Below, piece by piece: positions 5,498-35,720 of a stretch of 42,292 nucleotides of DNA. Position 1 is the first letter of the stretch; every line of letters starts with the position of its first letter. The notes beneath the pieces are model-generated. The model saw nothing but the letters and a program-made list of their open reading frames with translations. It was not told the origin of the DNA and made no database searches. The position numbers and the translations under genes were made by a program. Origin of the DNA: a virus (lineage: Duplodnaviria > Heunggongvirae > Uroviricota > Caudoviricetes); the IMG/VR virus record IMGVR_UViG_2651869755_000015, positions 1 through 42,292 of that record. One strand, given 5' to 3'.

Positions 5498-5512
5498 TTA
5501 CCCGTTAGGTAA
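5498..5512. promoter_or_regulatory. Operator-like palindrome TTACCCGTTAGGTAA (OL-equivalent)
   Basis: Perfect TTACC-N5-GGTAA dyad between the repressor gene end and the leftward early operon. Confidence 0.55.
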
Positions 5513-5523
5513 TCAAATAGGCA

Positions 5524-5548
5524 ATAAAAAAGCCGCCAGAAGGCGGCT
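5524..5548 (-). terminator. Rho-independent terminator downstream of repressor gene
   Basis: Stem AGCCGCC/GGCGGCT with AGAA loop, followed on the minus strand by a T-run. Confidence 0.6.
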
Positions 5549-5569
5549 TACTTACTGAAAAATATGATT

Positions 5570-6154
5570 TTATTGTTTGCTTTTTTCGTTCTGGTTGATG
5601 ACAAATTCAATGTAACTTTCGATCTTTGCCTTCTCTGTTTCAGGTAACAATGCGTAGCGCGAGCGGTCATAGTTGATAGTTGCAGGGTCATGCGGATGAA
5701 TCAGTAGTTCATATCCGTGACGCCCGAATGCAGATGCAACATTCTCCAGGGTGGAAATGGAAACGCTGACCTCATTGTTTAACAGGCGGCTGATTGTCAC
5801 CTGGGCGACGCCGGATGCGCGGTGAAGTTTTCCCTGAGTTGAAAGGTCGCGGCTTTCGCTCATCCAGCGTTCCAGGTTGTGAGCCGCCAGCTGACCAATG
5901 TCGCTTGGGCCGACAGGCTGAAAACCTTCCTGAGAAAGCGAGCGATCGATATCAAGCCAGTTACGGGGTTTATTGGCGGCAGCTTCAATTTTTCGCGCAA
6001 CCTGGTCGCCGATAACCTTCTTGCCAAGAGCCCAGCGGTTTACCAGATTTGCCTGAGTTCCAAGTTTTTCAGCCATCCGCGTCTGAACACCATTGAATTC
6101 ACGGTCGATCAAGTCGTTGAGATTTTGCCTGCGGACGTCCTGGATACTTTTCAT
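5570..6154 (-). CDS. Prophage repressor, tandem HTH (XRE-type), no obvious peptidase S24 domain
   Basis: 194 aa; two HTH-like segments (VQTRMAEKLGTQANLVNRW; VAQVTISRLLNNEVSVSISTLENVASAF); divergent from a Cro-like gene with three operators between them; no Ala-Gly/Ser-Lys autocleavage signature seen. Confidence 0.65.
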   Translation of the reverse strand: MKSIQDVRRQNLNDLIDREFNGVQTRMAEKLGTQANLVNRWALGKKVIGDQVARKIEAAANKPRNWLDIDRSLSQEGFQPVGPSDIGQLAAHNLERWMSESRDLSTQGKLHRASGVAQVTISRLLNNEVSVSISTLENVASAFGRHGYELLIHPHDPATINYDRSRYALLPETEKAKIESYIEFVINQNEKSKQ

Positions 6155-6209
6155 TTTCTGGAAAATCGCCTCATATCTGAATCAGAAGATGATTCAATTT
6201 AAAGCAATA

Positions 6210-6272
6210 TTACCCAACAGGTAAATGCACCTCATGGGTAACTATCCTTGATTTTTGTTACCTTATAGGTGA
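6210..6272. promoter_or_regulatory. Divergent immunity promoter region with three operator-like dyads (OR-equivalent)
   Basis: TTACCCAACAGGTAA (6210-6224), partial CACCTCATGGGTAA (about 6229-6242), TTACCTTATAGGTGA (6258-6272) between the repressor and cro-like start codons. Confidence 0.6.
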
Positions 6273-6308
6273 ATATTTATTATCTGAAATAAATATCAGG
6301 CAATAGCT

Positions 6309-6539
6309 ATGAGCGATAACGGACATTTCGATTTCAAAAAGCACTGGCTTGCACTTACTCCGGATGAGCGTGAAGCCTTCGCACAGGAAGCCGGAACGAC
6401 GAGTCACTATATCCAGACTCACTTAACAGGTAAGCGCAAAATGCCAGGTAAGGTATTGATGGATGGGCTTTTTAAAGCCTGTAAATCAAGACAATGGCTG
6501 CGCTCAAAAGCAGAACTGGCATACTTCTTCTACTCATGA
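6309..6539 (+). CDS. Cro-like small HTH regulator
   Basis: 76-aa protein divergent from the repressor; followed by a terminator hairpin. Confidence 0.55.
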   Translation: MSDNGHFDFKKHWLALTPDEREAFAQEAGTTSHYIQTHLTGKRKMPGKVLMDGLFKACKSRQWLRSKAELAYFFYS

Positions 6540-6560
6540 TATCCAGCCACAACCCTCTGT

Positions 6561-6584
6561 AGACCGCCATCCGGCGGTCTTTTC
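6561..6584 (+). terminator. Rho-independent terminator after cro-like gene
   Basis: Stem AGACCGCC/GGCGGTCT, loop ATCC, followed by TTTT. Confidence 0.55.
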
Positions 6585-6594
6585 ATATCTATTC

Positions 6595-6609
6595 GTACCT
6601 CAAAGGTAA
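6595..6609. promoter_or_regulatory. Operator-like dyad GTACCTCAAAGGTAA (one mismatch)
   Basis: Near-perfect copy of the TTACC-N5-GGTAA dyad upstream of the gene at 6690. Confidence 0.4.
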
Positions 6610-6689
6610 TAAAAAACCAAATATGGTTGATCTTTTTTTTGTGTCAGCACAAAATAACCGTAATCCCAATACTAATAACAGGGCTTACC

Positions 6690-6890
6690 ATGGAAATCAT
6701 TACACGTATTGATGCCGCAAAGCGCGGACTTAAACGCTACTACACCGGAAAAACATGTAAGCACGGACATGACAGTGAACGCTGGGTTTACAACGGACAC
6801 TGTGTTGAGTGCACCATGGAATCAAACCGTCGTATCAGGGCAGAGATTAAGCAGATCATGATTAATTCCTCCCCACAACATTCAAGCTGA
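6690..6890 (+). CDS. Hypothetical Cys/His-rich small protein (CII-position gene)
   Basis: ATG at 6690; CKHGHDSERWVYNGHCVEC cluster suggests metal binding; sits where lambdoid phages carry cII. Confidence 0.4.
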   Translation: MEIITRIDAAKRGLKRYYTGKTCKHGHDSERWVYNGHCVECTMESNRRIRAEIKQIMINSSPQHSS

Positions 6891-6905
6891 TAGCGGAGAT
6901 TAATC

Positions 6906-7721
6906 ATGAGCAGACATGCAACAGATTGGGCCTGGGAGACAGATCCAGGTAGCTCGTCATTAAAGCTCATACTGCTCTCGATGGCTGACAGAGCCGATGA
7001 ATATAACCTCTGCTACCCCAGCATAGAACGCCTCGTTAAAGACACTTGCCTGAATAAAAAAACCGTGCAGGCCGGGCTTATATCGCTCATGAAAATGGGG
7101 CTTATTTCAGATACCGGAGAGAGAAAGGGAGCGACGAAAAGAGTGCGGGTTTTCTCTCTTAATATAACCAAAAACGGGAACATTAAAGGCAACCGGGAAG
7201 GGGGTAATGAACCCGAAAACGGTAATGTTACCGAAAACGGGAATATACCCAAAAACGGGATGTTGAATGATCCCAAAAACGGGATGTTGAATGATCCCAA
7301 AAACGGGATCCAGAACCAGTCATATAACCAGTCATTTAACCAAGAGAGGGAGAGCAGGACAAAAAGCGGGGATTCTGTGCCTCATGACCCCGGCGCAAAC
7401 AACGCCGTGATGAATAACTTTGTTCCTCCTGGTGGGCCAGGGCAATTAGGCAAATTTGTCATGCATGAACAATGGCAGCCATCAGATGACTTTCTTCGGA
7501 AAAGCTCATTGCAGGGAATCTACCTGGACAGTCTGCCAACGGCACAGGAACTTGCAGAGTTCAGAATTTACTGGATGGCTGAGGGTAAGGCATACCATCA
7601 GGCACAGTGGGAGCAGAAGCTGGCAAGGCGGCTGCAGATTAGCAGACAGAAGCAATCAACATTACCTGATAACAACGTTCCGCACTGGAACAGCCCTGAA
7701 GCATGGGAGGATTTCTTGTGA
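6906..7721 (+). CDS. Replication initiator, lambda O-like (N-terminal HTH, repeat linker)
   Basis: 271 aa; central Asn/Gly/Pro-rich repeat (ENGNVTENGNIPKNGMLNDPKNGMLNDPKNG) encoded by direct DNA repeats; immediately upstream of the P-like gene. Confidence 0.7.
   Translation: MSRHATDWAWETDPGSSSLKLILLSMADRADEYNLCYPSIERLVKDTCLNKKTVQAGLISLMKMGLISDTGERKGATKRVRVFSLNITKNGNIKGNREGGNEPENGNVTENGNIPKNGMLNDPKNGMLNDPKNGIQNQSYNQSFNQERESRTKSGDSVPHDPGANNAVMNNFVPPGGPGQLGKFVMHEQWQPSDDFLRKSSLQGIYLDSLPTAQELAEFRIYWMAEGKAYHQAQWEQKLARRLQISRQKQSTLPDNNVPHWNSPEAWEDFL
7168..7308. repeat. Iteron array (candidate origin of replication) inside the O-like gene
   Basis: Six copies of CC(A/G)AAAACGG(G/T)A at 7168, 7213, 7231, 7249, 7273, 7297 (18- and 24-bp spacing; two identical 24-bp units CCCAAAAACGGGATGTTGAATGAT), followed by AT-rich AACCAGTCAT(A/T)TAACC repeats. 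Confidence 0.6.
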
Positions 7722-8503
7722 ACAACGTTTTTACCGCGATACAAAACCGTGACGGAGAAGCCCTTTCTCGCATGTCAGGTTATGAGCATCAGTACACCAA
7801 CAATGACAACGTGGTGAACATGTCAGCAGAGAGGCTTGTTGATGCCCTTTTCAAACAGCTGAAACAACTGTTTCCGGCGGCAGTGGTAACCAACCTGAAG
7901 ACGCCAGAGCAGGAAGTTGCTGCAAAACAGCAGTGGATTGCTGCGTTTGCCGAAGGGGGGATCCGAACCCGTGAACAGGTTTCTGCTGGTATGCGCCACG
8001 CCCGCGCCAGTGAGTCTCCGTTCTGGCCGTCGCCAGGGCAATTCATCAAGTGGTGTAAAGACAGCAAGATGGTTCTTGGCGTCACCATTGACGATGTGAT
8101 GGCGGAGTTTCACCGGTACAGCAAGGAAAAAAGTTTATATCCTGGTGGTCCCGAAAGATTCCCGTGGCGACATCCGATTATGTACTGGGTCGTATGTGAT
8201 ACCCGCCGTGCAATGTATCAGCGCCAGCTTAGCGAGATTGAGGTTGAGAAACACGCGCGCAGGCTGCTCGATGATTGGGCGAAAAAGGTGGCTTCCGGAC
8301 AGCAGATACCCGATCCGGTGATCAGCATACAGGCAAAGCCAGAACCCATGAGTACACCTCCGGACACAGGGAGAGACGTTTACCATCCACCAGGGCGAAG
8401 TTTCGGGTGCATGCCTAACGCCGCCACCCTGGGGGGAATAACACCGGCGCAGTGGCTGATGGAGGAATACAGGCGGGGAAAGGCGTCAGGATTTATCAAG
8501 TAA
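7703..8503 (+). CDS. Replication protein P-like (helicase loader)
   Basis: QQWIAAFAEGGIRTREQVSAGMRHARASESPFWPSPGQFIKWC closely parallels the recalled lambda P segment RQWVLAFRENGITTMEQVNAGMRVARRQNRPFLPSPGQFVAWC; overlaps the O-like gene end. Confidence 0.8.
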   Translation: MGGFLVNNVFTAIQNRDGEALSRMSGYEHQYTNNDNVVNMSAERLVDALFKQLKQLFPAAVVTNLKTPEQEVAAKQQWIAAFAEGGIRTREQVSAGMRHARASESPFWPSPGQFIKWCKDSKMVLGVTIDDVMAEFHRYSKEKSLYPGGPERFPWRHPIMYWVVCDTRRAMYQRQLSEIEVEKHARRLLDDWAKKVASGQQIPDPVISIQAKPEPMSTPPDTGRDVYHPPGRSFGCMPNAATLGGITPAQWLMEEYRRGKASGFIK

Positions 8504-8540
8504 TACCAGCGCGATAGCGCATTTTTTTACGTCTCGATAA

Positions 8541-8617
8541 TTACCTTAGAGGTAATAAAATATTCTAAAATCTATTGATTTCGTGTCTTATGTGGTTTTT
8601 AATTACCTAAGGGGTAA
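8541..8617. promoter_or_regulatory. Two operator-like dyads upstream of the 8621 gene
   Basis: TTACCTTAGAGGTAA (8541-8555) and TTACCTAAGGGGTAA (8603-8617); CTTATGTGGTTTTT motif between them. Confidence 0.55.
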
Positions 8618-8620
8618 ATC

Positions 8621-8968
8621 ATGAAAAAACAGATGCAGGCTCTTGGTCGACTCAAAACAGGCCAGATGAACAAAACAGAATCTGCGTATTGCCAGCACCT
8701 TGAGCTGCGTAAACGTGCAGGAGAAATCGTCTGGTATCGATTTGAGGGTATCAAGCTGCGGTTAGCTGACAACACGTTCTATACGCCAGATTTTGCTGTG
8801 ATGCTCGCCACCGGCGAGATGGAACTGCACGAAGTGAAAGGGGGATTCTGGACCGATGACGCCAGAGTGAAAACCAAAGTCGCCGCAGATCAGTATCCGT
8901 TCCGAATCATCGGGGTAACGGTTAAGCCAAAGAAAGCAGGTGGTGGCTGGAACATCGAAGAGTTCTGA
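8621..8968 (+). CDS. DUF1064-like phage protein (putative PD-(D/E)xK-type nuclease)
   Basis: 115 aa; pattern YTPDF...ELHEVKG typical of small phage nuclease-fold proteins; family assignment is by recall. Confidence 0.45.
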   Translation: MKKQMQALGRLKTGQMNKTESAYCQHLELRKRAGEIVWYRFEGIKLRLADNTFYTPDFAVMLATGEMELHEVKGGFWTDDARVKTKVAADQYPFRIIGVTVKPKKAGGGWNIEEF

Positions 8969-9029
8969 ATCGACGATCTTTTTAGTTATCAATGTAATCA
9001 ATAAGTTATGTGGATAAGCGAGGGTAAAG

Positions 9030-9467
9030 ATGGAAAGTAATATCAAATGGTTAGTTGCCGCCGGGCATGAGATGGCTTCGGAACTGAAAGCAGAATGTGG
9101 TGCCGTTGATATGCGCAGTGTGGCAAAGCTGATCAGCTATTTGGCAACGCAACTGGAAGTGCAACTGGTGCGTGCTAATGCGCTGGCTGCGGAGAATGCG
9201 CTGGCTCGTAAAGCAGTTCAGGCATTTTGCGATGTTGTTGGCGACAGCACCGAGGTTATCTGCGAGGAGATTGGGCGAGATGGCGTTCTGGTTATTTTGG
9301 AGGCAATGAAGGCAACAGGAAATATGCCAGCCACCGATGCTTTCCTGTCTGAAGTGCGGGCGCAGGGGGTAGAGATGATGCGCGAACATCCATCAATCAA
9401 ACTTTGTTCTTTGACGCACATATGTGATGAGTTAGCCGCCCAGCTTCGCAAAGGAGGCAGCCAGTGA
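9030..9467 (+). CDS. Hypothetical early protein (145 aa)
   Basis: ATG with GAGGG Shine-Dalgarno; 4-nt overlap with next gene. Confidence 0.45.
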   Translation: MESNIKWLVAAGHEMASELKAECGAVDMRSVAKLISYLATQLEVQLVRANALAAENALARKAVQAFCDVVGDSTEVICEEIGRDGVLVILEAMKATGNMPATDAFLSEVRAQGVEMMREHPSIKLCSLTHICDELAAQLRKGGSQ

Positions 9468-9952
9468 GCAAGATTGACTATCAAAAGCTTCGTGAAATCG
9501 CTGAAAAAACAAAAATTGCTGGTGAAGCACCTGTAATGCCTTTCGATCAGCGAATTAATGCGCTTAACGATTTTATGAAGCACTTTTCGCCAGATATCGT
9601 GCTGGCATTGTTGGATGAGATCAACGCATTAGAGGAAACGCGTATCAACGATGTTTGCCGTATTGCGGAACTAACAAAACAACTGGAGTTGGCAAAATCA
9701 AAACTCAACGAGCAGCGTGAGTATTACGAGGGCGTTATCTCGGATGGAAGTAAGCGCATAGCAGAGTTAGAAAGTGATTCTCAGGCACAAAAGTTAGTTG
9801 AAGCAATCATTGTTGCGATAGAAAACGAACAGGAACGTCTTTTTGATGAAGATTACCTAATGGATTCGAAAGAATGCATTGACGTAATTCGTGAAGAAGT
9901 AAAGCGATGGAATGATTCCCGCGCCGCTGGCATTCGCATCAAAGGAGAGTGA
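9464..9952 (+). CDS. Ead/Ea22-like coiled-coil protein
   Basis: GTG start after AAAGGAGG; N-terminus MSKIDYQKLREIAEK and coiled-coil character typical of Ea22-like proteins. Confidence 0.5.
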   Translation: MSKIDYQKLREIAEKTKIAGEAPVMPFDQRINALNDFMKHFSPDIVLALLDEINALEETRINDVCRIAELTKQLELAKSKLNEQREYYEGVISDGSKRIAELESDSQAQKLVEAIIVAIENEQERLFDEDYLMDSKECIDVIREEVKRWNDSRAAGIRIKGE

Positions 9953-9953
9953 G

Positions 9954-10709
9954 ATGATTCACTACCACGGTGGGCCTATTACTCCTGATACGTGCGCAAT
10001 GAGAGCATGGAAAGGGCGACATGCGTTTATCAGTTTTGCGCATTCAGGCCAGATCAATCTCGCGGCTGAATACTGTCAGTCGTTCGCGCTGGACAACGGT
10101 GCATTCACCGCCTGGAAAGCAGCTGGCAAAAACAAAATCGACTGGAGCGATTACTACGAGTTTGTTGCTCGCTGGAAGAATCACCCAGGATTCGATTTTG
10201 CCATTATCCCGGATGTTATTGATGGCGGAGAGGAGGAAAATGATGCGCTTCTGAATGAGTGGCCTCACGGAAAACTAGCTGGCGTTCCAGTGTGGCACAT
10301 GAATGAAAGTGACGAGCGATTTATTCATTTGTGCAATGAGTTTCCGCGAGTGGCTATCGGTAGTTGTGGCGACTATGACGTAAAGCGCCCAACTCTTGCG
10401 GTAGCCAGAATGAAAGACCTGATTCGTCACATTGTTGATGGGCATGGTCAGCCGGTTACGAAACTACATGGATTGCGCATGTTAAATCCGCTGATATTCA
10501 CAAAATTACCCTTAGCCAGCGCAGATAGTACGAACGTCGCTCGAAACATCGGTATTGATAAAGCCTGGTCTGGGGCTTATGCACCTGCAAGTAAAGAGAC
10601 ACGCGCAGCATTAATGGTAGAACGGATTGAGGCACACAATAGCCCTGGTTCTCTTGCGTATTGTGAACAACGCGACCGCTTTGAAATGCAATTGCAACTA
10701 GCAGTTTAA
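9954..10709 (+). CDS. Candidate tRNA-guanine-transglycosylase-like (DpdA-like) TIM-barrel protein
   Basis: ATG at 9954 after AAAGGAGAG; segments FALDNGAF, FAIIPDV, VAIGSCGDY, KLHGLRMLNP parallel E. coli Tgt segments LTDSGGFQ, VMIFDEC, YAVGGLAVGE, YLMGVGKP (recalled). Confidence 0.45.
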   Translation: MIHYHGGPITPDTCAMRAWKGRHAFISFAHSGQINLAAEYCQSFALDNGAFTAWKAAGKNKIDWSDYYEFVARWKNHPGFDFAIIPDVIDGGEEENDALLNEWPHGKLAGVPVWHMNESDERFIHLCNEFPRVAIGSCGDYDVKRPTLAVARMKDLIRHIVDGHGQPVTKLHGLRMLNPLIFTKLPLASADSTNVARNIGIDKAWSGAYAPASKETRAALMVERIEAHNSPGSLAYCEQRDRFEMQLQLAV

Positions 10710-10719
10710 GGACTAACAA

Positions 10720-11580
10720 ATGACCACTATTACCAAAGAACGTATTGAATTGTTCATTAAAAATCCGCTTGAAAACGGGCTTACTCGTGGCGAACAAATG
10801 GAACTGGCACGAATTGCACTGGCATCGCTGGAAGGCGAGCCGATAGGTTTCCGTTGCAGGCGCAATGATAACCTTGGTGATTGGAGTTACGTATATCATC
10901 GAGAGCCAGATGATTTTGAGCGCAAACATTTAGTGATAGAGGGCATTTACGCCGCCCCTCCAGCGCCGGTAGTACCGGAAGAAAAACCAATGCCTAATCC
11001 TCTTAGCATGTACGCGGTTGATGCTGTTGCCGCTATTGCAGAGGTGAGAGGCTGGAATGCCCGCCGCGCCGCCATGCTTCAGTCCGGAAACTTTCGGGAA
11101 AACAAGAATTCGTCAACCAATAATTTTCGGGAAATCGCGGAAACGTCAACCAACTATCCGGTAATTCCTAGTGAGGTGTTGTCCGCAATCCAGAAGGTTG
11201 CCAAGATTCGTGCCGATTTCGATGATTTTGACGGTGACAGGCGAGGTATCGGTGATTGTCTGGATGAGGCTGAGCAAGAGCTTATCGTTACCATTAACAA
11301 ATATGCCAGTCAGTTGGCAGCAGAACCTATAGCGCCTAATGACGTTCGAGAGCAGACAGCCATTCCGCAAGTTCCGGTAATTCCGGATGGTTGGATAAGC
11401 TGTAGTGAGCGAATGCCGAACGACGCGCAGTGGTGCGTAGTGAACACAGAATACGGGTATTACGTGCAATGCTGGTCTGAAGGTCAAGGGTGGCTTGGTG
11501 ATGATATCAGCATACCTGAATGCGATGTAATCAATTGGATGCCTCTACCAGAACCGCCGAAGGAGGTTAACCGTGGCTAA
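10720..11580 (+). CDS. DUF551-domain phage protein
   Basis: C-terminal WISCSERMPNDAQWCVVNTEYGYYVQCW...VINWMPLPEPP resembles DUF551; internal direct DNA repeat at 11090-11160. Confidence 0.5.
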   Translation: MTTITKERIELFIKNPLENGLTRGEQMELARIALASLEGEPIGFRCRRNDNLGDWSYVYHREPDDFERKHLVIEGIYAAPPAPVVPEEKPMPNPLSMYAVDAVAAIAEVRGWNARRAAMLQSGNFRENKNSSTNNFREIAETSTNYPVIPSEVLSAIQKVAKIRADFDDFDGDRRGIGDCLDEAEQELIVTINKYASQLAAEPIAPNDVREQTAIPQVPVIPDGWISCSERMPNDAQWCVVNTEYGYYVQCWSEGQGWLGDDISIPECDVINWMPLPEPPKEVNRG

Positions 11581-11610
11581 CATGCAACTTATCCTTAAAG
11601 GTGAAAAGAT

Positions 11611-11832: not shown

Positions 11833-11859
11833 GTATGTTCGCAATAAAGGTGAATATTG

Positions 11860-12198
11860 ATGGCTAAATCAGCAGCAGAGCGCAAAGCCGCTCAGAGAGC
11901 CAGACAAGCTGAATCCGGTGTACGTAAGCTGGAGATTGTGCTTGATGCTCAGGAAATTGAAATGCTGGAGCGTAACTGTGCCACGCGTCGCCCCGGGCGT
12001 GCGCCTTACGAATTTGGTGAGTATATAGCGTTACTGATCCGCCAGGATGATGCACGCGTGCGCGGGCGTATAAAATCGATCAGCAGAAAACGTTGCGGTA
12101 AGTGCGGCGAGAGAGTTCCTGTGAATTCATGCCCGTGTAATGGTGACTCGCAATGCTGGGTGACTAAAGGCTGGCATGAAACGAAATTAATAGTGTGA
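11860..12198 (+). CDS. Hypothetical DNA-binding protein (RHH-like N-terminus, Cys-rich zinc-ribbon-like C-terminus)
   Basis: ATG at 11860 after AAAGGTGAA; C-terminal CGKCGERVPVNSCPCNGDSQC; stop codon lies inside the 14-bp palindrome at 12194-12207. Confidence 0.45.
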   Translation: MAKSAAERKAAQRARQAESGVRKLEIVLDAQEIEMLERNCATRRPGRAPYEFGEYIALLIRQDDARVRGRIKSISRKRCGKCGERVPVNSCPCNGDSQCWVTKGWHETKLIV

Positions 12199-12207
12199 CA
12201 TGTCACG
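12194..12207. repeat. 14-bp perfect palindrome TGTGACATGTCACG (copy 1)
   Basis: Exact 14-mer shared with 14598-14611 and, in reverse complement, with 32009-32022. Confidence 0.85.
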
Positions 12208-12433: not shown

Positions 12434-12459
12434 GCCGCCAACTATGGCGGCTTTATTTT
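12434..12459 (+). terminator. Rho-independent terminator between early genes and terS
   Basis: Stem GCCGCC/GGCGGC, loop AACTAT, then TTTATTTT. Confidence 0.55.
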
Positions 12460-12470
12460 GCATGTTACTA

Positions 12471-12503
12471 TTACCACAACGGTAACTATTACCACGGTGG
12501 TTA
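12471..12503. promoter_or_regulatory. Operator-like dyads immediately upstream of terS
   Basis: TTACCACAACGGTAA (12471-12485) and a degenerate copy TTACCACGGTGGTTA (12489-12503) within ACTATTACCAC direct repeats. Confidence 0.5.
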
Positions 12504-14597: not shown

Positions 14598-14611
14598 TGT
14601 GACATGTCACG
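14598..14611. repeat. 14-bp perfect palindrome TGTGACATGTCACG (copy 2)
   Basis: Identical 14-mer to copy 1. Confidence 0.85.
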
Positions 14612-15202: not shown

Positions 15203-15279
15203 TGGCGTGGCATGCAGGATTCGAACCTGCGACCAACCGCTTAGAAGGCGGTTGCTCTGTCCAACTGAGCTAATGCCAC
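15203..15279 (-). tRNA. tRNA-Arg (anticodon UCU)
   Basis: Minus-strand 77-nt sequence GTGGCATTAGCTCAGTTGGACAGAGCAACCGCCTTCTAAGCGGTTGGTCGCAGGTTCGAATCCTGCATGCCACGCCA folds as a cloverleaf (7-bp acceptor stem, GTTCGAATC T-loop, anticodon loop CTTCTAA, 3' CCA). Confidence 0.85.
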
Positions 15280-15601: not shown

Positions 15602-15616
15602 TTACCTGAAAGGTAA
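15602..15616. promoter_or_regulatory. Operator-like dyad TTACCTGAAAGGTAA upstream of the structural operon
   Basis: Perfect dyad, identical to the site at 35706-35720; followed by CATATGTGGTTAAATTGGTAAT. Confidence 0.55.
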
Positions 15617-15706
15617 TAATTTGTGCGTTAAATGTCAACTGTCTACGATAAATAAATCATATGTGGTTAAATTGGTAATAATTTAATTGCGTACGGAGTC
15701 ATTGAT

Positions 15707-28896: not shown

Positions 28897-31445
28897 TGGC
28901 AGCAAACGAATTTTTGACGCAGTGCGAGCGCAGTGTAAATGCTGCCGCTGGTCGCGAGCTTTCTTCCGATGAGATGGAGTCGCTGGTGCGTGACATGAAC
29001 GACACCACTAGGCGAATTCTGGCGACCAATGAGGCGCTGTCTCTGGAAGAGGCCGCGATGCGCGCAGCGGAAGAACTGAGCAATGCCGATATGCTGGCAA
29101 AACAGATTGAGGCTCGCAATAAGGCAATCAACGCCCGTATTGCCGCACAACGACTTAGAGAGCTTCGTACTATCTGGAAAGACCGCCCGGATATCGGGCT
29201 TGAAGCAATGCTGGTTGGCCGCAACGATGCGCGTACCGGCGCCCGCCGGTCGGTATCTTCGGAGGTGGCGCAACTGCGCGGCAAGTATCATTCCGGTATC
29301 AACTACGATTTTGACCGTGCCGGGCTGGTGCAATTCATCGCCAGCGGCAGCAATGACCGGGAAATTGCCGATGCAATGTGGCGCATAGGGCGCGGGCAGT
29401 CAACTGACGGTATGACAAAGCAATCCGTAAGCGCTGCACAAATCATCATGAAATGGCAGGAAACTGCGCGCATTGATGAGAACCGCGCCGGGGCATGGAT
29501 ACGCAAAGAGCCGGGCTATATAGTGCGCCAGTCACACGACATCATGAAGATCCGCGCCGCAGGTTATGAAGCATGGCGAAATGCTATTCTCCCGCGCCTT
29601 GATGAGCGCACTTTTGACGGCGTGGCTGACCGCGAGCAGTTCATGCGTAACATTTATAACGGGCTGGCTTCCGGCGTGCATCTTACATCTGAAAAGCCCG
29701 ATTGGATGAATGGCTTTAAGGGATCGGCGAACGCAGCTAAACGCGCCAGCCAAGAGCGAATTTTGCACTTCAAAGATGGTATCTCGTGGCACGAGTACAA
29801 CCAGCAATTCGGCACCGGCAGCCTGCGAGAAGCGCTGTTTGGTGGCTTAAACAGCGCTGCCCGCACAACGGGCATGATGCGCGTACTGGGCACTAACCCA
29901 CAGAACATGTTTAAGTACCTGACGGACGCCATTGCTGAAGATATCAGCAAATCCGGAAGACCGGCAGCGTTGGCTGACTACATGACGAAGGTGCGTCGCA
30001 TTAACCGTACCGTAATGCCGCAGGTTGACGGCTCGCTAAATATTCCTGGCAGCGTAGGCTGGGCCAATGCGTCGGCGGCTGTACGCGGCTGGTTGCGTAT
30101 GAGCCAACTTGGTGGCGCGGTAATCTCATCGTTTAACGACGTGCCTATCGCCGCTACCGAGATGCGCTACCAAGGGCAGAATTTTATGCAGGCGTTGCTT
30201 GGTGCTATGAGAGGCCGCTTCACGCGTTACAACAGCGCGGAGCAGAAAGAGATCCTTTCCTCTATCGGAGTTTATTCCGACTCCATGACGCAGGAAATCA
30301 TCCGGCGCATATCTGGTGATGACACGCTGAATGGAAAGCTTGGTCGCGCGCAGCAGCTTTTCTTTAAGTACAACCTCATGAACTTCTGGACCGAGAGCGG
30401 TCGCAACAGCAACGCCATGATGATAACCAACTGGCTTGCAAAGAATGCTGACCAGTCTCATGCGCGGCTACCGGAAGACCTGCGACGCGTGCTGGATCTG
30501 CACGGTATTGGCGAACGTGAGTGGGAAATTTTTCGCAACATGGACATGGCCGATAGCGAAGGTCGTAAGTTCATGACGACCAGCGGCATCCGCGGCGTGC
30601 CTGACGAAGTGATTGCCGGTTATGTAGAGAGTAAGGGGATCAAACCAACGCAGCGCGCTATCGCTGACGCACGCGATCAATTGGAAGGGCAGTTGCGCGG
30701 CTACATCCTTGACCGCCTGAATATCGCCATGTCAGAGCCTGGCGATCGCACGCAGGCGTTTATGAAGATGGGCACGGTGCCAGGAACGGTGGCTGGGGAA
30801 GCAATACGATTCGCTGGTCAGTACAAATCGTTCACTGCAAGCTTCATGCAGAACGTACTAGGACGCGAAGTATTCGGGCGTGGTTATATTCCTGCTGGGC
30901 TTGGTGAGTCGAAAACCGGATCGCTGACGAATGCGCTGCTACGTAACGGGAAGGGGGCTTTCCTTGGTGCTGCAAACCTCTTTGTCTGGGCGACTATGTT
31001 TGGTTATATCTCCATGCAGTCAAAACTCATGCTGAAAGGGCAAACACCACGCCCGGCAGATGCCAAGACGTTTCTCGCAGCCGCATCTCAGGGGGGCGGT
31101 CTTGGCATCTTGGGTGACTTCATGTTTGGTGAGGTCAACCGCATGGGGGCCGGGCCGGTTACGTCGCTAATGGGGCCAGCAGCATCGAACGCTGACAGCA
31201 TTATCACGCTGCTCCAGCAGACCACGAGAGGGGATGCAGATTTGGGTGACTGGTATCGCACGGCACTTGACAATACGCCATTCCTCAACGTGTTCTGGCT
31301 TCGTACGGCGATGAATGGTTTAATATTGAACCGGATACAAGATGCCCTTGACCCAGGCTCTCTTGAGCGTTATCAGCGCCGTGTTGAGCGTGAGCAGGGG
31401 AACGACTTTCTGATCCCACCATCGCAGTTCATGCTAGGTAAATAA
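28896..31445 (+). CDS. Large internal virion/ejection protein
   Basis: ATG at 28896 overlapping the previous stop; 850 aa; last gene of the high-GC structural block. Confidence 0.5.
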   Translation: MAANEFLTQCERSVNAAAGRELSSDEMESLVRDMNDTTRRILATNEALSLEEAAMRAAEELSNADMLAKQIEARNKAINARIAAQRLRELRTIWKDRPDIGLEAMLVGRNDARTGARRSVSSEVAQLRGKYHSGINYDFDRAGLVQFIASGSNDREIADAMWRIGRGQSTDGMTKQSVSAAQIIMKWQETARIDENRAGAWIRKEPGYIVRQSHDIMKIRAAGYEAWRNAILPRLDERTFDGVADREQFMRNIYNGLASGVHLTSEKPDWMNGFKGSANAAKRASQERILHFKDGISWHEYNQQFGTGSLREALFGGLNSAARTTGMMRVLGTNPQNMFKYLTDAIAEDISKSGRPAALADYMTKVRRINRTVMPQVDGSLNIPGSVGWANASAAVRGWLRMSQLGGAVISSFNDVPIAATEMRYQGQNFMQALLGAMRGRFTRYNSAEQKEILSSIGVYSDSMTQEIIRRISGDDTLNGKLGRAQQLFFKYNLMNFWTESGRNSNAMMITNWLAKNADQSHARLPEDLRRVLDLHGIGEREWEIFRNMDMADSEGRKFMTTSGIRGVPDEVIAGYVESKGIKPTQRAIADARDQLEGQLRGYILDRLNIAMSEPGDRTQAFMKMGTVPGTVAGEAIRFAGQYKSFTASFMQNVLGREVFGRGYIPAGLGESKTGSLTNALLRNGKGAFLGAANLFVWATMFGYISMQSKLMLKGQTPRPADAKTFLAAASQGGGLGILGDFMFGEVNRMGAGPVTSLMGPAASNADSIITLLQQTTRGDADLGDWYRTALDNTPFLNVFWLRTAMNGLILNRIQDALDPGSLERYQRRVEREQGNDFLIPPSQFMLGK

Positions 31446-31447
31446 TA

Positions 31448-32008
31448 ATGAAGGCAATTATATTTTTTGTTTCAATATTGATGTCTGCATTTTCTTTTGC
31501 AGGGCAAAATGTTAAATGCGAACTTCAATACTTTGGAGATAGCGATAAATTTAAGGTAACTCAGTTTTCTTTTATGGGGATTCCATCTGATTCATACCTT
31601 TATACCTGTGCCGACTGTGGAGGCATCCAGATAAACGTGTTCCCATCTATTCAGACTGTTGCCTCCTACTCATTTGAAAACAACATTGATTTCGAAAGGA
31701 AAATCAATGCTGAATACAACAGAAAAGACATAGCTAAACTTGAGATGGAAAACGTTACTCAAGGCGGGAGAATAAAATATTCAATCACCGATACTGGTTT
31801 GGCAGAGTTTTACCCAGAGGGCAAAAAGATAAGCTACCTCTACTTTTTAGCCAAGCAACAAAATGGTAAAGAACAAGTAGGTTATTCAGGATTTGTTACC
31901 TCTAACGGGGATAAGTCATGCTCAATTATTGCGACATATCCAGGAAAAGAAATTTCTTTTCTGGGAAGTAAATCTTTAAGCTACTTTATGAATCATATAT
32001 CAATGTAG
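31448..32008 (+). CDS. AT-rich secreted protein (signal peptide), accessory
   Basis: N-terminal MKAIIFFVSILMSAFSFAGQ signal-peptide-like; visibly AT-rich codon usage; followed by palindrome copy 3. Confidence 0.55.
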   Translation: MKAIIFFVSILMSAFSFAGQNVKCELQYFGDSDKFKVTQFSFMGIPSDSYLYTCADCGGIQINVFPSIQTVASYSFENNIDFERKINAEYNRKDIAKLEMENVTQGGRIKYSITDTGLAEFYPEGKKISYLYFLAKQQNGKEQVGYSGFVTSNGDKSCSIIATYPGKEISFLGSKSLSYFMNHISM

Positions 32009-32022
32009 CGTGACATGTCACA
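32009..32022. repeat. 14-bp perfect palindrome CGTGACATGTCACA (copy 3, inverted orientation)
   Basis: Exact reverse complement of the 14-mer at 12194 and 14598. Confidence 0.85.
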
Positions 32023-32123
32023 GGCCGCTTTCGCGGTCTTGTTTTTAACGGATGCCACCGCCACCCGGGCGGGAATCCGCAGAACGCCCACCGCAGCGGG
32101 AGCCGTCAGCAGCAGTGTCGCTG

Positions 32124-32627
32124 TTATACTATTGAGTTAAATGATATCTTGTCCTTAATATCATTAAGTTTGCCATATATCTTTTTTGCATAAAAATCAG
32201 CTTCCTCAATAAACTTCGACTTCTCATTATCAGGCATATTTTTGAAGGTATGTGCACATGTATATTGAGAGTAGTAATTGTGAAACTTGTTATACATATT
32301 ATTGAGTTCTTGTAAGTCTTTTTTATACTCAGGAAGGTATATGTTTATTAGCATTTCCATCGTTTGCAACGGATTGACTTTTGATGTGTCAAATTTACTA
32401 TCAGAGTGGTAACTGGCATTGTTAACAAAATTGAGAATAGCCATTTTGTTTGAAGCTATGACTTTTTCAGTAAGTATGCAATTTGTGAATAATTGCTCAC
32501 GTTTATCTCTTAATATTTTTTCGCGCTCTAATTTTATGCTGTTTTTGTATCCTTGCCTTGCACTTATGTAAGTAGAAACTATAGCAATAACTGCACCTAT
32601 CAATGCGCCTAAGATAGTATTATCCAT
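32124..32627 (-). CDS. AT-rich membrane-anchored protein (1 predicted TM), accessory
   Basis: ATG at 32627 after AGGTGG; N-terminal hydrophobic helix ILGALIGAVIAIVSTYI; Lys/Asn/Tyr-rich soluble domain. Confidence 0.5.
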   Translation of the reverse strand: MDNTILGALIGAVIAIVSTYISARQGYKNSIKLEREKILRDKREQLFTNCILTEKVIASNKMAILNFVNNASYHSDSKFDTSKVNPLQTMEMLINIYLPEYKKDLQELNNMYNKFHNYYSQYTCAHTFKNMPDNEKSKFIEEADFYAKKIYGKLNDIKDKISFNSIV

Positions 32628-32652
32628 ATAAGCCACCTAAACTGCGTAAAAA

Positions 32653-33516
32653 TTATTTCCTGCCACTTCTGTAGTATATGTTGCGACCATTTTTGGTCAC
32701 ATTAACAACATGACCCTTTGTTTCTACTTTGTTATTGGTTGCCTTATATACTTCAAAGTCAAACCATGATATATGACTTATTTCGTCTATAGATACCATA
32801 ATTTCTAGACCTTGAACTTTCTTTTTGCTTATCCCTTTTATCGCAGCACTGCGCTTAATTTGGATTTCACCTGGGTAAGCGTTTGTAAATGTAACAGATA
32901 AATTTTCTTTGTTTCTGTACCCTGACATTAAAGGAACAAAAGATATGTGTTGGTGTGGCCCTTGATTTTCCGTTGGCTCACCAGAACCATTTATTATTCC
33001 AACGTATACTTTATTTGATGATAAAGTAATTAACATTGGTTTCTTAGGATCTGATTCGATTGCATCAAGCAATAGCAAATCTAAAGAACCCTGGGAGTAC
33101 GTTTTTCGCAATACTCTAGCTTTCATTGCCTCTGATATTTTGTCATAAATATCACGTTTATAAAAACAACCTAAAAGAAGATCTTTTAGCCAAACAAAAG
33201 ATACATAACACAAAGAGAAGCAAATTGATGTGACTGACAGAAGAAGTAGCCACATGTAAATTCTATCTGTTTCTGGTTTTGACGTTACATTAAAAGTTTC
33301 CACCATGTCGTGAACTAGGTGAAAATCAGGATATTTACATTTTATAAATGCGGCAATTATTACTGAAGCAACAAGGCAATATGTACCTAATGCAGCTACT
33401 TTCATATAAAGAAGCTGGCCTTCATGTCGGTATAAACGGAAATAATGATACTGGTTAGCGGTTATCATAATATAACCACTAACCAGAATGGGGATAATTA
33501 GAAGAGCTAACAACAC
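32653..33516 (-). CDS. AT-rich multi-pass membrane protein, accessory
   Basis: 287 aa; about 3 hydrophobic helices in the first ~110 residues then a soluble domain; GTG start overlapping the upstream stop (TAGTG). Confidence 0.55.
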   Translation of the reverse strand: MLLALLIIPILVSGYIMITANQYHYFRLYRHEGQLLYMKVAALGTYCLVASVIIAAFIKCKYPDFHLVHDMVETFNVTSKPETDRIYMWLLLLSVTSICFSLCYVSFVWLKDLLLGCFYKRDIYDKISEAMKARVLRKTYSQGSLDLLLLDAIESDPKKPMLITLSSNKVYVGIINGSGEPTENQGPHQHISFVPLMSGYRNKENLSVTFTNAYPGEIQIKRSAAIKGISKKKVQGLEIMVSIDEISHISWFDFEVYKATNNKVETKGHVVNVTKNGRNIYYRSGRK

Positions 33517-33725
33517 TATTTCCTTACAGTGGCAAGATCCTGTTTAACAATTGCAGCAGCGAGACGACGCATCTCTTTAACCTCAGGAAGCTCAGAAATT
33601 TGCTGTGATGAGATATATACTCCACCACGCTTGTTAACCTGCGCTGACGCCGGAACTTCTGCATTTTTTGCCTGAGGGCTGGGTGCATTATCCCTCGTTT
33701 TTGTACGAGCGAACCAAAATCCCAT
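33516..33725 (-). CDS. Hypothetical small protein (69 aa), first gene of the accessory operon
   Basis: Normal-GC ORF translationally coupled to the membrane protein; operator dyad upstream. Confidence 0.4.
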   Translation of the reverse strand: MGFWFARTKTRDNAPSPQAKNAEVPASAQVNKRGGVYISSQQISELPEVKEMRRLAAAIVKQDLATVRK

Positions 33726-33751
33726 ATCTCCTCCTCATGTAAACACATGGT

Positions 33752-33766
33752 TTACCTTTAGGGTAA
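33752..33766. promoter_or_regulatory. Operator-like dyad TTACCTTTAGGGTAA
   Basis: Perfect dyad in the 113-bp spacer upstream of the accessory operon; preceded by ACACATGGTT. Confidence 0.55.
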
Positions 33767-33838
33767 TAGTACGCTATTCACTCCCAGTCTGCAATCTGTA
33801 CAGAATTATTTAAAGGCACATCCCTGTGCCGCCGCCCG

Positions 33839-34573
33839 TCAGAAGAACCCTGCCTTGTCGTTGATGTACTCCGCGTGGGTCTGGATATCACGCAGGCATT
33901 TGCTCACACCGACGATGTAGCAGAACATGGTGGTCAGCTCCGCCGCCGCGCCCGATACGTCGTGCCCGTCTTCCTGTAACTGGTTCAGCAGATTCATCAG
34001 CAGTGAGTTCTCCGTCAGGCCGAGAACACCAGACGGCGAATGAATCAGGCTGCGGTAGCCGGGCTTCAGTGGGGCACTGTATTCTTTTTTGTCTTCCAGC
34101 TTGATCGCCTCCATAATGGCGGGCATGAATTTTTCAATTACCTGAGTGGCCTTTGATAAATCAGCTCCACCTGAGAGACGAACATCTCCACTGACATTTG
34201 CGGGTTTTCTGTCGAAGTAGCAATCTTCCAGTTTTTCGAAGACCTCCCACGCTTTTTCAGTCTCAAGAATTTTCGCATGTCGTGCTGCACCGCGAGCGGT
34301 CCATAAGAAAAGATGACTTACTTTTGGTGCAATATTAAGCAAACCTCTTTGAGAGGACTCGTTCTTAAATGCTCGTAATTCTTCGCCTATCAGCTTGAAA
34401 CAATGTTTTCCCTCAATGAATCGATCTGCATTTCGTTGATAGTTTTGACGAATCAGTTTGGGTTCTGTGTCATACAAATCAGCAAGCATTTCTGTAGTCA
34501 TTACAGGGATGTTGCAATGAGTTGTTATCGGCAACTTATCAATAGCTATATTACGCATTTTCATTGCCTCCAT
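33839..34573 (-). CDS. Antirepressor-like protein (ORF6N/Ant N-terminal domain plus C-terminal domain)
   Basis: N-terminal VMTTEMLADLYDTEPKLIRQNYQRNADRFIEGKHCFKL matches the ORF6N/Ant pattern; C-terminal ~70 aa homologous to the 35372-35629 product. Start may be 34558 or 34564. Confidence 0.65.
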   Translation of the reverse strand: MEAMKMRNIAIDKLPITTHCNIPVMTTEMLADLYDTEPKLIRQNYQRNADRFIEGKHCFKLIGEELRAFKNESSQRGLLNIAPKVSHLFLWTARGAARHAKILETEKAWEVFEKLEDCYFDRKPANVSGDVRLSGGADLSKATQVIEKFMPAIMEAIKLEDKKEYSAPLKPGYRSLIHSPSGVLGLTENSLLMNLLNQLQEDGHDVSGAAAELTTMFCYIVGVSKCLRDIQTHAEYINDKAGFF

Positions 34574-35057
34574 CTTTCACGACGAAATAGCAATTATCTT
34601 TATAATCTAACTGGATGAACTTTATGTTTTCAGGGAGTTTTACAGAAAGAGTTTTTGCACAAGCAAAACCAAAATCTGCGCCAGAAGCATCCATATACCT
34701 TAATAATTGTTTTAATGCTGAAGGAGAAAAAGTATCTACCTTCACCTCAACAGGGTAACCATCTTTTGTTTTTAGGTCTGGTTGACCTGGTCCACCAAGT
34801 ATTTCAGCGTTAAGGTATTTTGCTATTTCTGGATAAGCGTTGTATTCAGAGCGTAGTTTTGCCTTGTTATCGACTGCTAGTTGCATAAGATGATCAAACA
34901 AATTGGTATCTAAATCTGCCCCTTCATCCCACATTCTATTTCTACAGCTAATCAATTCACTGACCAGTGGTGCACTTTCTTGCCTTAGCATAAGAAGGAG
35001 TGGAGAATTAGAAATTAACCAATACAGATCGTCGTTTGAGATTTTTTGGCCTGGCAT
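34551..35057 (-). CDS. Hypothetical protein (168 aa) co-transcribed with antirepressor
   Basis: ORF with stop overlapping the ant start region. Confidence 0.45.
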   Translation of the reverse strand: MPGQKISNDDLYWLISNSPLLLMLRQESAPLVSELISCRNRMWDEGADLDTNLFDHLMQLAVDNKAKLRSEYNAYPEIAKYLNAEILGGPGQPDLKTKDGYPVEVKVDTFSPSALKQLLRYMDASGADFGFACAKTLSVKLPENIKFIQLDYKDNCYFVVKDGGNENA

Positions 35058-35211
35058 AGCGATACCTCTACTAGTAAGTTACCCACCACCGCAACGCCAA
35101 TTGCTGGTGGTGAACTGGACAAGGTTGGCGTACCGGCCTAGTAGGTACCGGCGCACCTTTCGGTGCCCCTGCCCAGCCCACCATAATTCGGATATGACTG
35201 TGCTATACGCA

Positions 35212-35235
35212 TAAAAAAACCACGTCTGGCGTGGT
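35212..35235 (-). terminator. Rho-independent terminator downstream of small antirepressor gene
   Basis: Minus strand ACCACGCCAGACGTGGT followed by TTTTTTT. Confidence 0.55.
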
Positions 35236-35325
35236 ATGCGCCTACTAGTAATCCGGGACGCCAATCCCGGCACTGGATTTTGCCAGTGCCTGATTACTAT
35301 GGCACAAGAGGAGTGCGATGTAAAT

Positions 35326-35340
35326 TTACCGCAAAGGTAA
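35326..35340. promoter_or_regulatory. Operator-like dyad TTACCGCAAAGGTAA
   Basis: Perfect dyad in the structured noncoding spacer 35058-35371. Confidence 0.5.
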
Positions 35341-35371
35341 ATATAAGCACTCCACTTGGTAATTGCAAACC

Positions 35372-35629
35372 TTATCTGGTTTGCTTTCGTAATTGTTCGG
35401 CACAATAGTCGAGATGTGTTTGCAGATCCTGCATAGACATCTGTGAGCTGGTGACGTAGTTAATCAGTGCAGTCAGTTCGGCAAGTGGGCCATCGACATT
35501 AAATCCATCCTTATCGAGATCCCGGAGTAATTTCATCAAGTGCGATCCCTCCACCAGTGACCTGACGCCTCCCGGCGTGTGAATCCTTTCGGTAAATCCG
35601 TCTTCCAGTGGATAGTGATACTGCTGCAT
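35372..35629 (-). CDS. Small antirepressor-like protein (homolog of Ant C-terminal domain)
   Basis: ATG at 35629 after GGAGAAG (track uses TTG at 35647); IHTPGGVRSLVEGSHLMKLLRDLDKDGFNVDGPLAELTALINYV aligns with IHSPSGVLGLTENSLLMNLLNQLQEDGHDVSGAAAELTTMFCYI of the 244-aa Ant; LexA box 22 bp upstream. Confidence 0.5.
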   Translation of the reverse strand: MQQYHYPLEDGFTERIHTPGGVRSLVEGSHLMKLLRDLDKDGFNVDGPLAELTALINYVTSSQMSMQDLQTHLDYCAEQLRKQTR

Positions 35630-35650
35630 CTTATCTTCTCCATGCAATAA

Positions 35651-35666
35651 CTGTATATTTATACAG
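35651..35666. promoter_or_regulatory. LexA (SOS) box CTGTATATTTATACAG
   Basis: AACTGTATATTTATACAGTA matches the E. coli LexA consensus TACTGTATATATATACAGTA at 18 of 20 positions, with perfect CTGT-N8-ACAG. Confidence 0.7.
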
Positions 35667-35705
35667 TATCAAATAATTTGTTTGCTATCCAGCACGTTTC
35701 GCAAA

Positions 35706-35720
35706 TTACCTGAAAGGTAA
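35706..35720. promoter_or_regulatory. Operator-like dyad TTACCTGAAAGGTAA upstream of tailspike
   Basis: Identical to 15602-15616; followed by CCATATGTGGTTTTTCAGGTAAT. Confidence 0.55.

Follow-up and report, generated by a model that had tools for sequence, protein, structure and literature searches.

Dispersed copies of a repressor operator dyad in a Uetakevirus prophage: placement, conservation and probable binder

Introduction

The record of Salmonella phage epsilon15 (AY150271.2) carries seven features labelled 'protein_bind, repressor, lysogeny' with the sequence ATTACC-N5-GGTAAT. One each precedes terS, the portal operon and the tailspike gene, three lie to the left of the repressor gene, and one lies behind the replication genes. 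Here we analyse the same palindrome, TTACC-N5-GGTAA, in a stretch of 42,292 nucleotides of Caudoviricetes DNA (IMG/VR record IMGVR_UViG_2651869755_000015, positions 1 to 42,292; hereafter the window, meaning this whole stretch), in which it very probably constitutes the operator through which the immunity repressor, Rep, controls dispersed transcription units of a phiV10/epsilon15-type prophage. The dyad is already known as a repressor operator in Uetakevirus, and the present analysis thus correctly recovers an established system. The fixed register between operator and -10 hexamer and the pairing of operators at 62 bp are seemingly unannotated and would explain how a tetrameric repressor works; a second dyad at late promoters and the presence of the operator at cargo junctions also seem to be unannotated and may be new.

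The Rep-Ant antirepression switch of Salmonella phage SPC32H was reportedly described by Kim and Ryu in 2013 and is said to have been solved structurally by Kim et al. in 2016. Rep consists of N-terminal DNA-binding, middle dimerisation and C-terminal tetramerisation domains, the dimerisation domain being the second helix-turn-helix (HTH)-like domain of the SPC32H structure, and its mechanism of repression 'has not been extensively characterized' (PMC9986798). The tetramer binds palindromic sites with pairs of DNA-binding domains that come from different dimers (PMC9638917), and over-expression of Rep in phage ZX5 lowered endolysin transcripts by 99.99% and holin transcripts by 99.97% (PMC9782041).

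The Window and Its Relatives

The window is a Uetakevirus prophage (phiV10/epsilon15-like podophages) that extends from an integrase gene at its left edge to lysis genes near 41 kb, with a piecewise identity of about 97% to phiV10, vB_EcoP_PAS61, phiv142-3, HEMP4 and others, and non-coding DNA makes up 7.5% of it. At least 80% of its first 25 kb is present in 354 of 5426 complete E. coli genomes, and better annotation of this common E. coli prophage family is the practical value of the analysis. The relatives compared were phiV10, epsilon15, SPC32H, Tyrion, BUCT711 and TL-2011b, whose hosts are E. coli, Salmonella, Enterobacter and Klebsiella.

Copies of the Operator Dyad

TTACC-N5-GGTAA occurs perfectly nine times in the window (5498, 6210, 8541, 8603, 12471, 15602, 33752, 35326 and 35706), and all nine had been listed in the original prediction, which was made from the letters of the sequence; shuffled windows hold 0.01 perfect dyads on average, and nine were reached in 0 of 100. 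In an unbiased count of all 5-mer dyads with spacers of 0-14, this one ranks first, and the runner-up (four copies) is a pattern nested within it. Allowing up to one mismatch gives 15 dyads against 0.71 expected, those beyond the perfect ones being located at 5436, 6258, 6595, 12489, 31810 and 39331. The copies at 6258 and 6595 had also been predicted, and the list of about eleven sites had missed those at 5436, 6227 and 12489; the matches at 31810 and 39331 fall in coding sequence and do not exceed chance expectation. The operators, listed without strand, are:

5436..5450, OL1 operator (TTATCGTTGAGGTAA), one mismatch, matrix score 14.5, perfect in phiV10
5498..5512, OL2 operator, perfect, 62 bp from OL1, centre at about -62 from the predicted PL start
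6210..6224, OR site a, perfect, from the dyad scan
6227..6241, OR site b (GCACCTCATGGGTAA), two mismatches, 17 bp from site a, perfect in epsilon15, SPC32H and BUCT711
6258..6272, OR site c (TTACCTTATAGGTGA), one mismatch, in the spacer 3' of the invariant -35 TTGATT (6248-6253) of the predicted rightward promoter of the cro-like gene
6595..6609, degenerate operator (GTACCTCAAAGGTAA), after the cro-like gene and the terminator at 6561-6580
8541..8555, distal operator of the pair at the 8621 gene, perfect, centre at about -62, 62 bp upstream of the 8603 operator
8603..8617, proximal operator of the 8621 gene, perfect, first base shared with the last base of the predicted -10 TTTAAT (8598-8603)
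12471..12485, terS operator 1, perfect, first base shared with the last base of the predicted extended -10 TGTTACTAT (12463-12471)
12489..12503, terS operator 2 (TTACCACGGTGGTTA), one mismatch, 18 bp from operator 1, matrix score below 8
15602..15616, portal-operon operator, perfect, 56 bp before the invariant block CATATGTGGTT-N5-GGTAATAATTT (15658-15684)
33752..33766, AT-rich cassette operator, perfect, heading the minus-strand genes 33725-32124
35326..35340, operator of the isrK/C4/ORF6N antirepressor module, perfect, at the head of this minus-strand module
35706..35720, operator of the ant/tailspike divergent region, perfect, at about -57 from the predicted ant start

A weight matrix was trained on 47 sites from five related phages, with the window's own sites excluded, and the full window was scanned with it for intergenic enrichment, the original prediction having proposed such a check with a matrix built from the window's sites. 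Twelve sites score at least 14.5 (the nine perfect copies together with 5436, 6258 and 6595), all twelve fall within the 7.5% of non-coding DNA, and shuffled windows scanned with the same matrix gave none at a threshold of 15; the weak coding matches at 39331 and 39626 are at chance level (0.85). That every copy is intergenic holds once two mechanical open reading frames (ORFs) are discounted. One of them, 35079-35405, overlies the isrK and C4 RNA genes. The other is a long terS ORF from TTG 12425, which encloses a terminator hairpin and operators; alignment with epsilon15, SPC32H and Tyrion places the real start of terS at ATG 12506, after GGTGG. The same over-long start is found in the phiV10 RefSeq record (NC_007804.2, 41-715), where terS is annotated from position 41; phiV10-type records have this wrong terS start and carry no operator features.

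The operator consensus is (A)TTACC-N5-GGTAA(T). Its arms are identical in 47 of 47 training sites, without compensatory changes, and the five-base spacer is variable except for its centre, where an A or a T stands in the sites of the window as well as in 92 of 94 oriented training sites. The palindrome can fold as an RNA hairpin of 5-7 bp, which would suit an action as RNA (hairpin, terminator or processing site), and a small mobile repeat would be a related reading; we find either hardly credible. These hairpins have little stability (-3.6 to -5.8 kcal/mol) and no T-run, the true terminators are separate, adjoining GC-rich hairpins, and the sites lie upstream of predicted starts and in both orientations relative to transcription. 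Given also the invariant arms and the free spacer, the hairpin/terminator reading was rejected. A k-mer enrichment scan of the non-coding DNA gave nothing beyond the elements described in this text.

The dyad is likewise top-ranked in the relatives, with 8 perfect copies in phiV10, 11 in epsilon15, 10 in SPC32H, 9 in Enterobacter phage Tyrion and 9 in Klebsiella phage BUCT711. These copies are syntenic, and TL-2011b carries the dyad at the corresponding positions. In Cobetia phage Carin1, whose structural genes are related but which lacks Rep, the dyad does not occur. The window and epsilon15 share the extended dyad sequence, copies at equivalent places and an orthologous repressor (epsilon15 gp38 / SPC32H Rep) beside OL/OR. 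They differ in that the window adds sites on cargo that epsilon15 lacks (33752, 35326), has two OL sites where epsilon15 has three, and has a decayed pre-lysis site. The epsilon15 genome paper (Kropinski et al. 2007) reportedly gives the consensus ATTACCWDWWNGGTAAT. In the epsilon15 record itself, the phage's own OR pair (33341, 33358), the lysis-upstream site (24704) and the site at 35969 are left unmarked.

Candidate Binders of the Dyad

The following genes and sites bear on the identity and release of the binder:

5570..6154, minus strand, Rep immunity repressor, full-length match (residues 1-190 of 194, E 3.5e-42) to PDB 5D50_A, the SPC32H repressor
6309..6539, plus strand, cro-like gene, PHROG 35 'transcriptional repressor', possible second user of the operators
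35372..35629, minus strand, Ant small antirepressor, E 5.4e-47 and about 87% identity to PDB 5D50_E, start ATG 35629 by alignment
35651..35666, no strand, perfect LexA box, CTGTATATTTATACAG (CTGT-N8-ACAG), conserved in 6 of 6 genomes

In Rep, an HTH_3 match covers residues 106-147 and a weak Cro/YdaS-like HTH match covers residues 21-61, a layout that would correspond to an N-terminal DNA-binding domain, a middle HTH_3-like dimerisation domain and a C-terminal tetramerisation/Ant-binding domain. The earlier label of 'tandem-HTH' repressor is misleading, since the second HTH-like domain is the dimerisation domain in the SPC32H structure (PMC9986798). Rep is only about 43% identical to SPC32H Rep overall, and the Rep of ZX5 is 99.5% identical to that of the window. 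The DNA-binding domain is the best conserved part, with 50% invariant columns against 10-32% elsewhere and an invariant NLVNRW, which fits an unchanged operator despite the low overall identity. Searched against 5.8 billion proteins, this domain retrieved fragments of Rep itself and no distant relatives, and a Pfam-type domain search gave no Peptidase_S24 match, that is, no self-cleaving domain by sequence.

Ant, of about 86 residues, has a homolog in all relatives, and the LexA box overlaps the predicted ant promoter (-35 TGGATA at 35691-35686, -10 TACTGT at 35668-35663, minus strand), which points to LexA control of ant. Together with the full-length Rep homolog and the 10 dyad copies of SPC32H, the closely similar Ant and the LexA box at ant are features that the window shares with the SPC32H Rep-Ant system (PDB 5D50/5D4Z), from which it differs in the overall identity of Rep.

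In six-genome alignments, no dyad other than the operators is conserved around the invariant PL or within the rep/cro spacer. Because an immunity repressor must act at OL and OR, and identical sites cannot be distinguished by their location, Rep should also bind the dispersed copies, and we regard it as almost certainly their binder on the evidence of the alignments and homologies. The original prediction of a single repressor at 5570-6154 agrees in this respect with the epsilon15 annotation, the homology to SPC32H Rep, the placement of sites at PL and OR, and the pattern in PseuP_224. The presence or absence of the candidate proteins is non-discriminating among the relatives, since each of them encodes Rep together with the cro-like and gp49-like proteins.

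PseuP_224, a lambda-like siphovirus of Pseudomonas with an annotated Q antiterminator, discriminates better. Its cI is a Rep-type N-terminal domain (39% identity, E 1e-10) fused to a LexA-like S24 self-cleaving domain, and no gp49-like, cro-like or Ant homolog was found in it (E above 0.1). TTACC-N4-GGTAA occurs in this phage at 10906, 10932 (one mismatch), 11768 and 11807, against 0.015 expected; these dyads are confined to both cI flanks, with none elsewhere in 43 kb, and their spacer is one base shorter than that of the window. This pattern suggests that half-site specificity travels with the Rep-type domain and that the spacing goes with the architecture of the dimer.

The gp49-like protein at 11857-12198 (PHROG 536 'transcriptional regulator'), originally named as a ribbon-helix-helix/zinc-ribbon alternative to Rep, is conserved in all relatives and is encoded just upstream of terS, a frequent seat of late regulators. 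That it binds the dyad instead of Rep is nonetheless very unlikely: Rep would be left without an operator at PL and in the rep/cro spacer, where the dyad is the only conserved one, PseuP_224 has the half-sites around cI without a gp49-like homolog, and in SPC32H, which keeps all operators, the tblastn match covers only residues 36-113. The SPC32H homolog (38396-38632) is annotated with 78 residues and may be N-terminally truncated or mis-started.

In lambdoid phages, the repressor and Cro share operators, lambda Cro using the sites of CI. The cro-like protein might similarly act on the same operators in lytic growth and lower the early and accessory units, a role compatible with that of Rep, which we consider rather doubtful. 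Its gene is divergent from rep across the three OR sites and is part of the conserved set of the family, facts that favour such sharing. The same half-sites are present in PseuP_224 without a cro-like homolog, and the cro-like protein has no Pfam domain match.

Operators and Predicted Promoters

The promoters described here are consensus matches backed by conservation, and their transcription starts are inferred. Automatic scoring of the operator/promoter register flagged 9 of 26 oriented flanks, an excess due to the AT-rich operator flank, which mimics a -10 hexamer; we kept only registers supported by both conservation and gene orientation. The reference case is PL:

5450..5478, minus strand, predicted PL promoter, -35 TTGACA (5478-5473), 17-bp spacer, -10 AATTAT (5455-5450)

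TTGACA and ATTAT of PL are invariant in six genomes. The first base of OL1 on the minus strand is the last base of this -10, so that the operator would cover about -7 to +8. The same geometry is observed at the gene that starts at 8621, where the predicted promoter has its -35 TTGATT at 8575-8580 and a 17-bp spacer, and where the proximal operator also extends over the ribosome-binding site of that gene. PL and the 8621 gene, otherwise unrelated loci, also share the spacing of 62 bp between operators, of which we count 13 cases (and one of 63 bp) in seven genomes.

At terS, operator 1 is placed after the terminator 12434-12451, and operator 2 overlaps the GGTGG ribosome-binding site, a degenerate copy being conserved there in relatives. 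Minus-strand TTGCAG (33794-33789)-17-TACTAT (33771-33766) heads the AT-rich cassette, and this putative -10 ends on the first base, on that strand, of the operator at 33752. The operator at 35326 is overlapped by minus-strand TTGCAA (35368-35363)-17-TATATT (35345-35340), and it also abuts the -35 of TTTACA (35324-35319)-17-CATAGT (35301-35296), whose predicted start corresponds to the isrK 5' end (35289). The five units in which the operator abuts the -10 (PL, the 8621 gene, terS, the AT-rich cassette and the isrK/C4 module) are each directed toward the neighbouring gene, and it is only at these units and at PR, the rightward promoter of the cro-like gene, that an operator overlaps a predicted core promoter.

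Three OR-like sites had been predicted in the repressor/cro spacer; those at 6210 and 6258 are located there, the third one is 6227, and the site at 6595, counted as a spacer site, lies outside, beyond the cro-like gene and the terminator that follows that gene. All 6 genomes have a degenerate left arm at this site, which is upstream of a conserved putative promoter of the replication operon, TTGATC (6627-6632)-17-CAAAAT (6650-6655).

Late Operons and a Second Dyad

Upstream of the portal and tailspike genes we noticed near-invariant blocks, composed of CATATGTGGTT-N5-GGTAAT followed by AATTT or AGAAT, which resemble promoters in which the -35 is poor and a GGTAA half-site adjoins the -10. The tailspike block (CATATGTGGTT-N5-GGTAA-TAGAAT, 35750-35776) lies 44 bp after the operator at 35706. 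A second dyad, AACCA-N4-TGGTT, is found beside Rep operators:

6615..6628, second dyad, perfect
15655..15668, second dyad
35747..35760, second dyad
35777..35787, minus strand, further copy of the motif
39135..39148, second dyad, perfect

With at most one mismatch it has 10 copies against 1.44 expected, both perfect ones being intergenic, and its core CAWAT-NN-GGTT has 5 copies against 0.84 expected, all intergenic. The second dyad is syntenic in all relatives, in the after-cro, portal, tailspike and lysis upstream regions, and it stands 7-10 bp upstream of -10-like hexamers at the late blocks and 21 bp upstream after cro. In the lysis upstream regions of phiV10 and Tyrion it is a perfect 14-bp palindrome, 7 bp before TATAAT or TATGAT. 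The epsilon15 record carries no annotation of AACCA-N4-TGGTT. From its conservation and placement, it is probably the site of a second regulator.

The element ATGTGGTT, originally described as a shared upstream element of several operators, is part of this second motif and lies downstream of the full sites at 15602 and 35706; ACACATGGTT at 33742, taken for a further copy, is different from the motif. Mini-ORFs starting at ATGTGGTT (MWLNW, MWFFR) were also considered and were rejected, as their ATG is not conserved in epsilon15, Tyrion and BUCT711.

Direct silencing of late genes by Rep is plausible from the placement of the sites, and a second regulator of the late units is likely. We consider it possible, if somewhat doubtful, that the latter governs the late operons (portal, tailspike, lysis) for the main part, acting at AACCA-N4-TGGTT/CATAT-NN-GGTT 7-10 bp upstream of the -10, and that the nearby Rep operators serve divergent or leftward units (ant; the transfer RNA (tRNA) gene and accessory genes) or only anchor loops. 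Several of the preceding observations would fit this arrangement, namely the distance of 44-56 bp between the operator and an invariant block with a poor -35, the excess, intergenic location and synteny of the second motif, and the position of the operator at 35706, about -57 from the ant promoter. A leftward TAGACA-18-AATTAT, moreover, abuts the operator at 15602 with the tRNA gene downstream on that strand, and this operator could also serve the leftward unit. Candidates for the regulator are a PerC-like activator (2559-2858) and the gp49-like protein, and AlpA-like (2968-3216) and cro-like proteins are further regulator candidates of the window. In the opposite sense, the GGTAA half-site abuts the -10 in both late blocks, where bridging by Rep could occlude it, over-expression of Rep abolished lysis-gene transcripts in ZX5 (PMC9782041), and the distance from motif to -10 is uneven (7-10 bp at late blocks, 21 bp after cro).

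Reading the dyad as the Rep operator of the dispersed units remains our preferred interpretation, and several points weigh against it. The portal and tailspike operators are 56 and 44 bp upstream of the best promoter candidate, and the lysis cassette of the window is without a good operator, its upstream site being decayed. AT-rich operator flanks yield -10-like hexamers, which weakens the register argument where conservation is lacking. The drop of transcripts in ZX5 could be indirect, the epsilon15 repressor sites may be annotated as a mere prediction, and PseuP_224, the best-discriminating test of the binder, is one case only.

It had also been proposed that every operon is silenced directly, without a cascade. 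Family and domain searches among the early genes detected no Q/N-type antiterminator, which fits this idea, and the operator is located on a predicted core promoter at six units; the proposal reaches too far for the portal and tailspike operons, where the operator lies upstream, and for the lysis genes, which have no good site.

Proposed Mechanism

We propose that the N-terminal HTH domains of Rep would contact two half-sites one helical turn apart, and that in a lysogen Rep would occupy about 14 sites in 9 regulatory regions. At PL, the 8621 gene, terS, the AT-rich cassette and the isrK/C4/antirepressor module, bound Rep would cover positions -7 to +8 and block open-complex formation, and at the rightward promoter of the cro-like gene the operator would fill the -35/-10 spacer. 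A tetramer, with its two DNA-binding units, may hold two operators at once, 62 bp apart at PL and the 8621 gene and 17-18 bp apart at OR and terS. Repression of the portal and tailspike operons might involve looping to the adjacent GGTAA half-site or interference with the second regulator. On induction, DNA damage would lead to cleavage of LexA and to synthesis of Ant from the LexA-boxed promoter (35651-35668), and Ant would disassemble the Rep tetramers and free all operator-controlled units at once.

A more elaborate possibility, which we advance tentatively and hold to be rather unlikely as a whole, is an undescribed two-key circuit that would combine the 62-bp Rep clamp, a second dimeric regulator at AACCA-N4-TGGTT replacing the -35, and the operator as a cargo junction. 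In such a circuit the second regulator may be an additional requirement of the middle and late units that are transcribed rightward (replication, portal, tailspike, lysis), and the operator may mark the junction at which cargo is swapped, putting new cargo under Rep control automatically.

Comparison With Other Operator Systems

As in lambda OR/OL, the window has three adjacent dyads between divergent repressor and cro-like genes and several operators at the leftward early promoter, with half-sites one helical turn apart as in HTH dimers. In contrast to lambda, its Rep has no S24 autocleavage domain, so that induction would proceed via an antirepressor, its operators are also present at late and accessory units, and neither the autocleaving repressor nor the Q/N late antitermination of the CI/Cro/Q scheme was found among its early genes. 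PseuP_224, with an S24-fused Rep-type domain, an annotated Q and sites at cI only, differs from the window in these same features.

The late genes of phage P1 are reached through a C1-controlled activator. P1 has 22 dispersed C1 operators (PMC8546580), and the window resembles its c4-icd-ant immI arrangement in having one repressor, scattered operators and an antirepressor unit with a C4 antisense RNA, located downstream of the operator at 35326; the P1 operators, however, are asymmetric 17-mers, and C1 is unrelated to Rep. In the cluster A mycobacteriophages L5 and Bxb1, stoperators in short intergenic gaps silence the genome in the lysogen (PMC9283540, PMC6550527). Many copies of a repressor site spread over the genome in intergenic gaps are common to these phages and the window. 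Stoperators are nevertheless asymmetric, orientation-dependent and monomer-bound, belong to repressors unrelated to Rep, and stop elongation inside operons, whereas the sites of the window are symmetric (perfect palindromes), fewer, and at the heads of transcription units, that is, at their 5' ends.

Cargo Modules and Other Elements

The AT-rich cassette (32124-33725, minus strand) comprises three genes of 69, 287 and 170 residues with a GC fraction of 0.32-0.37. These have no Pfam match and match only PHROGs of unknown function, and in the phage collection only the flanks of the cassette were found. The cassette appears to be repressed by Rep, which is unusual for cargo expected to be active in a lysogen. 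In TL-2011b (33333-33347, corresponding to 33752-33766 of the window) the cargo differs, including a YafO-family toxin and others, and the operator is at the 5' end of the cargo in both phages. The promoter-side flank of the operator is identical in the two (GGTAAtagtacgctatt), and the spacer and the cargo-side flank differ; a shared flank with different cargo suggests a mosaic junction at or in the operator, so that swapped cargo would inherit control by Rep.

Rfam matches identify an isrK Hfq-binding small RNA at 35213-35289 (68 bits) and a C4 antisense RNA at 35103-35188 (77 bits), both on the minus strand and in tandem, downstream of the operator at 35326 and upstream of a gene for a protein of 168 residues (34551-35057) and of an ORF6N-type antirepressor gene (33839-34573). 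The RNA stretch (35103-35289) has a folding z-score of -5.4. This module resembles a second antirepressor module of the P1 immI or Gifsy-1 isrK kind (compare PMC4825925).

Between terL and the portal operon, downstream of the operator at 15602 in the leftward direction, there is a tRNA gene (15206-15279, minus strand, 73 bits) whose anticodon loop is CUUCUAA, read as UCU/Arg; a tRNA-Arg is annotated at the syntenic place in SPC32H.

A 12-bp palindrome, GTGACATGTCAC, occurs three times in the window (0.08 expected), at 12195-12206, 14599-14610 and 32010-32021, each time at the 3' end of a transcription unit: the first at the stop codon of the gp49-like gene, the second behind terL and the third behind the last of the late genes. 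A terminator hairpin directly adjoins the copies at 14599 and 32010; at 12195 an inserted ORF leaves about 230 bp between the palindrome and the terminator at 12434-12451. Uetakevirus relatives each have syntenic copies at two or three of these positions, and Carin1 has none.

In the early accessory block, the gene at 9912-10709 (plus strand) matches PHROG 887 'queuine tRNA-ribosyltransferase' (E 6e-104), and it may have a function in the modification of DNA or tRNA bases.

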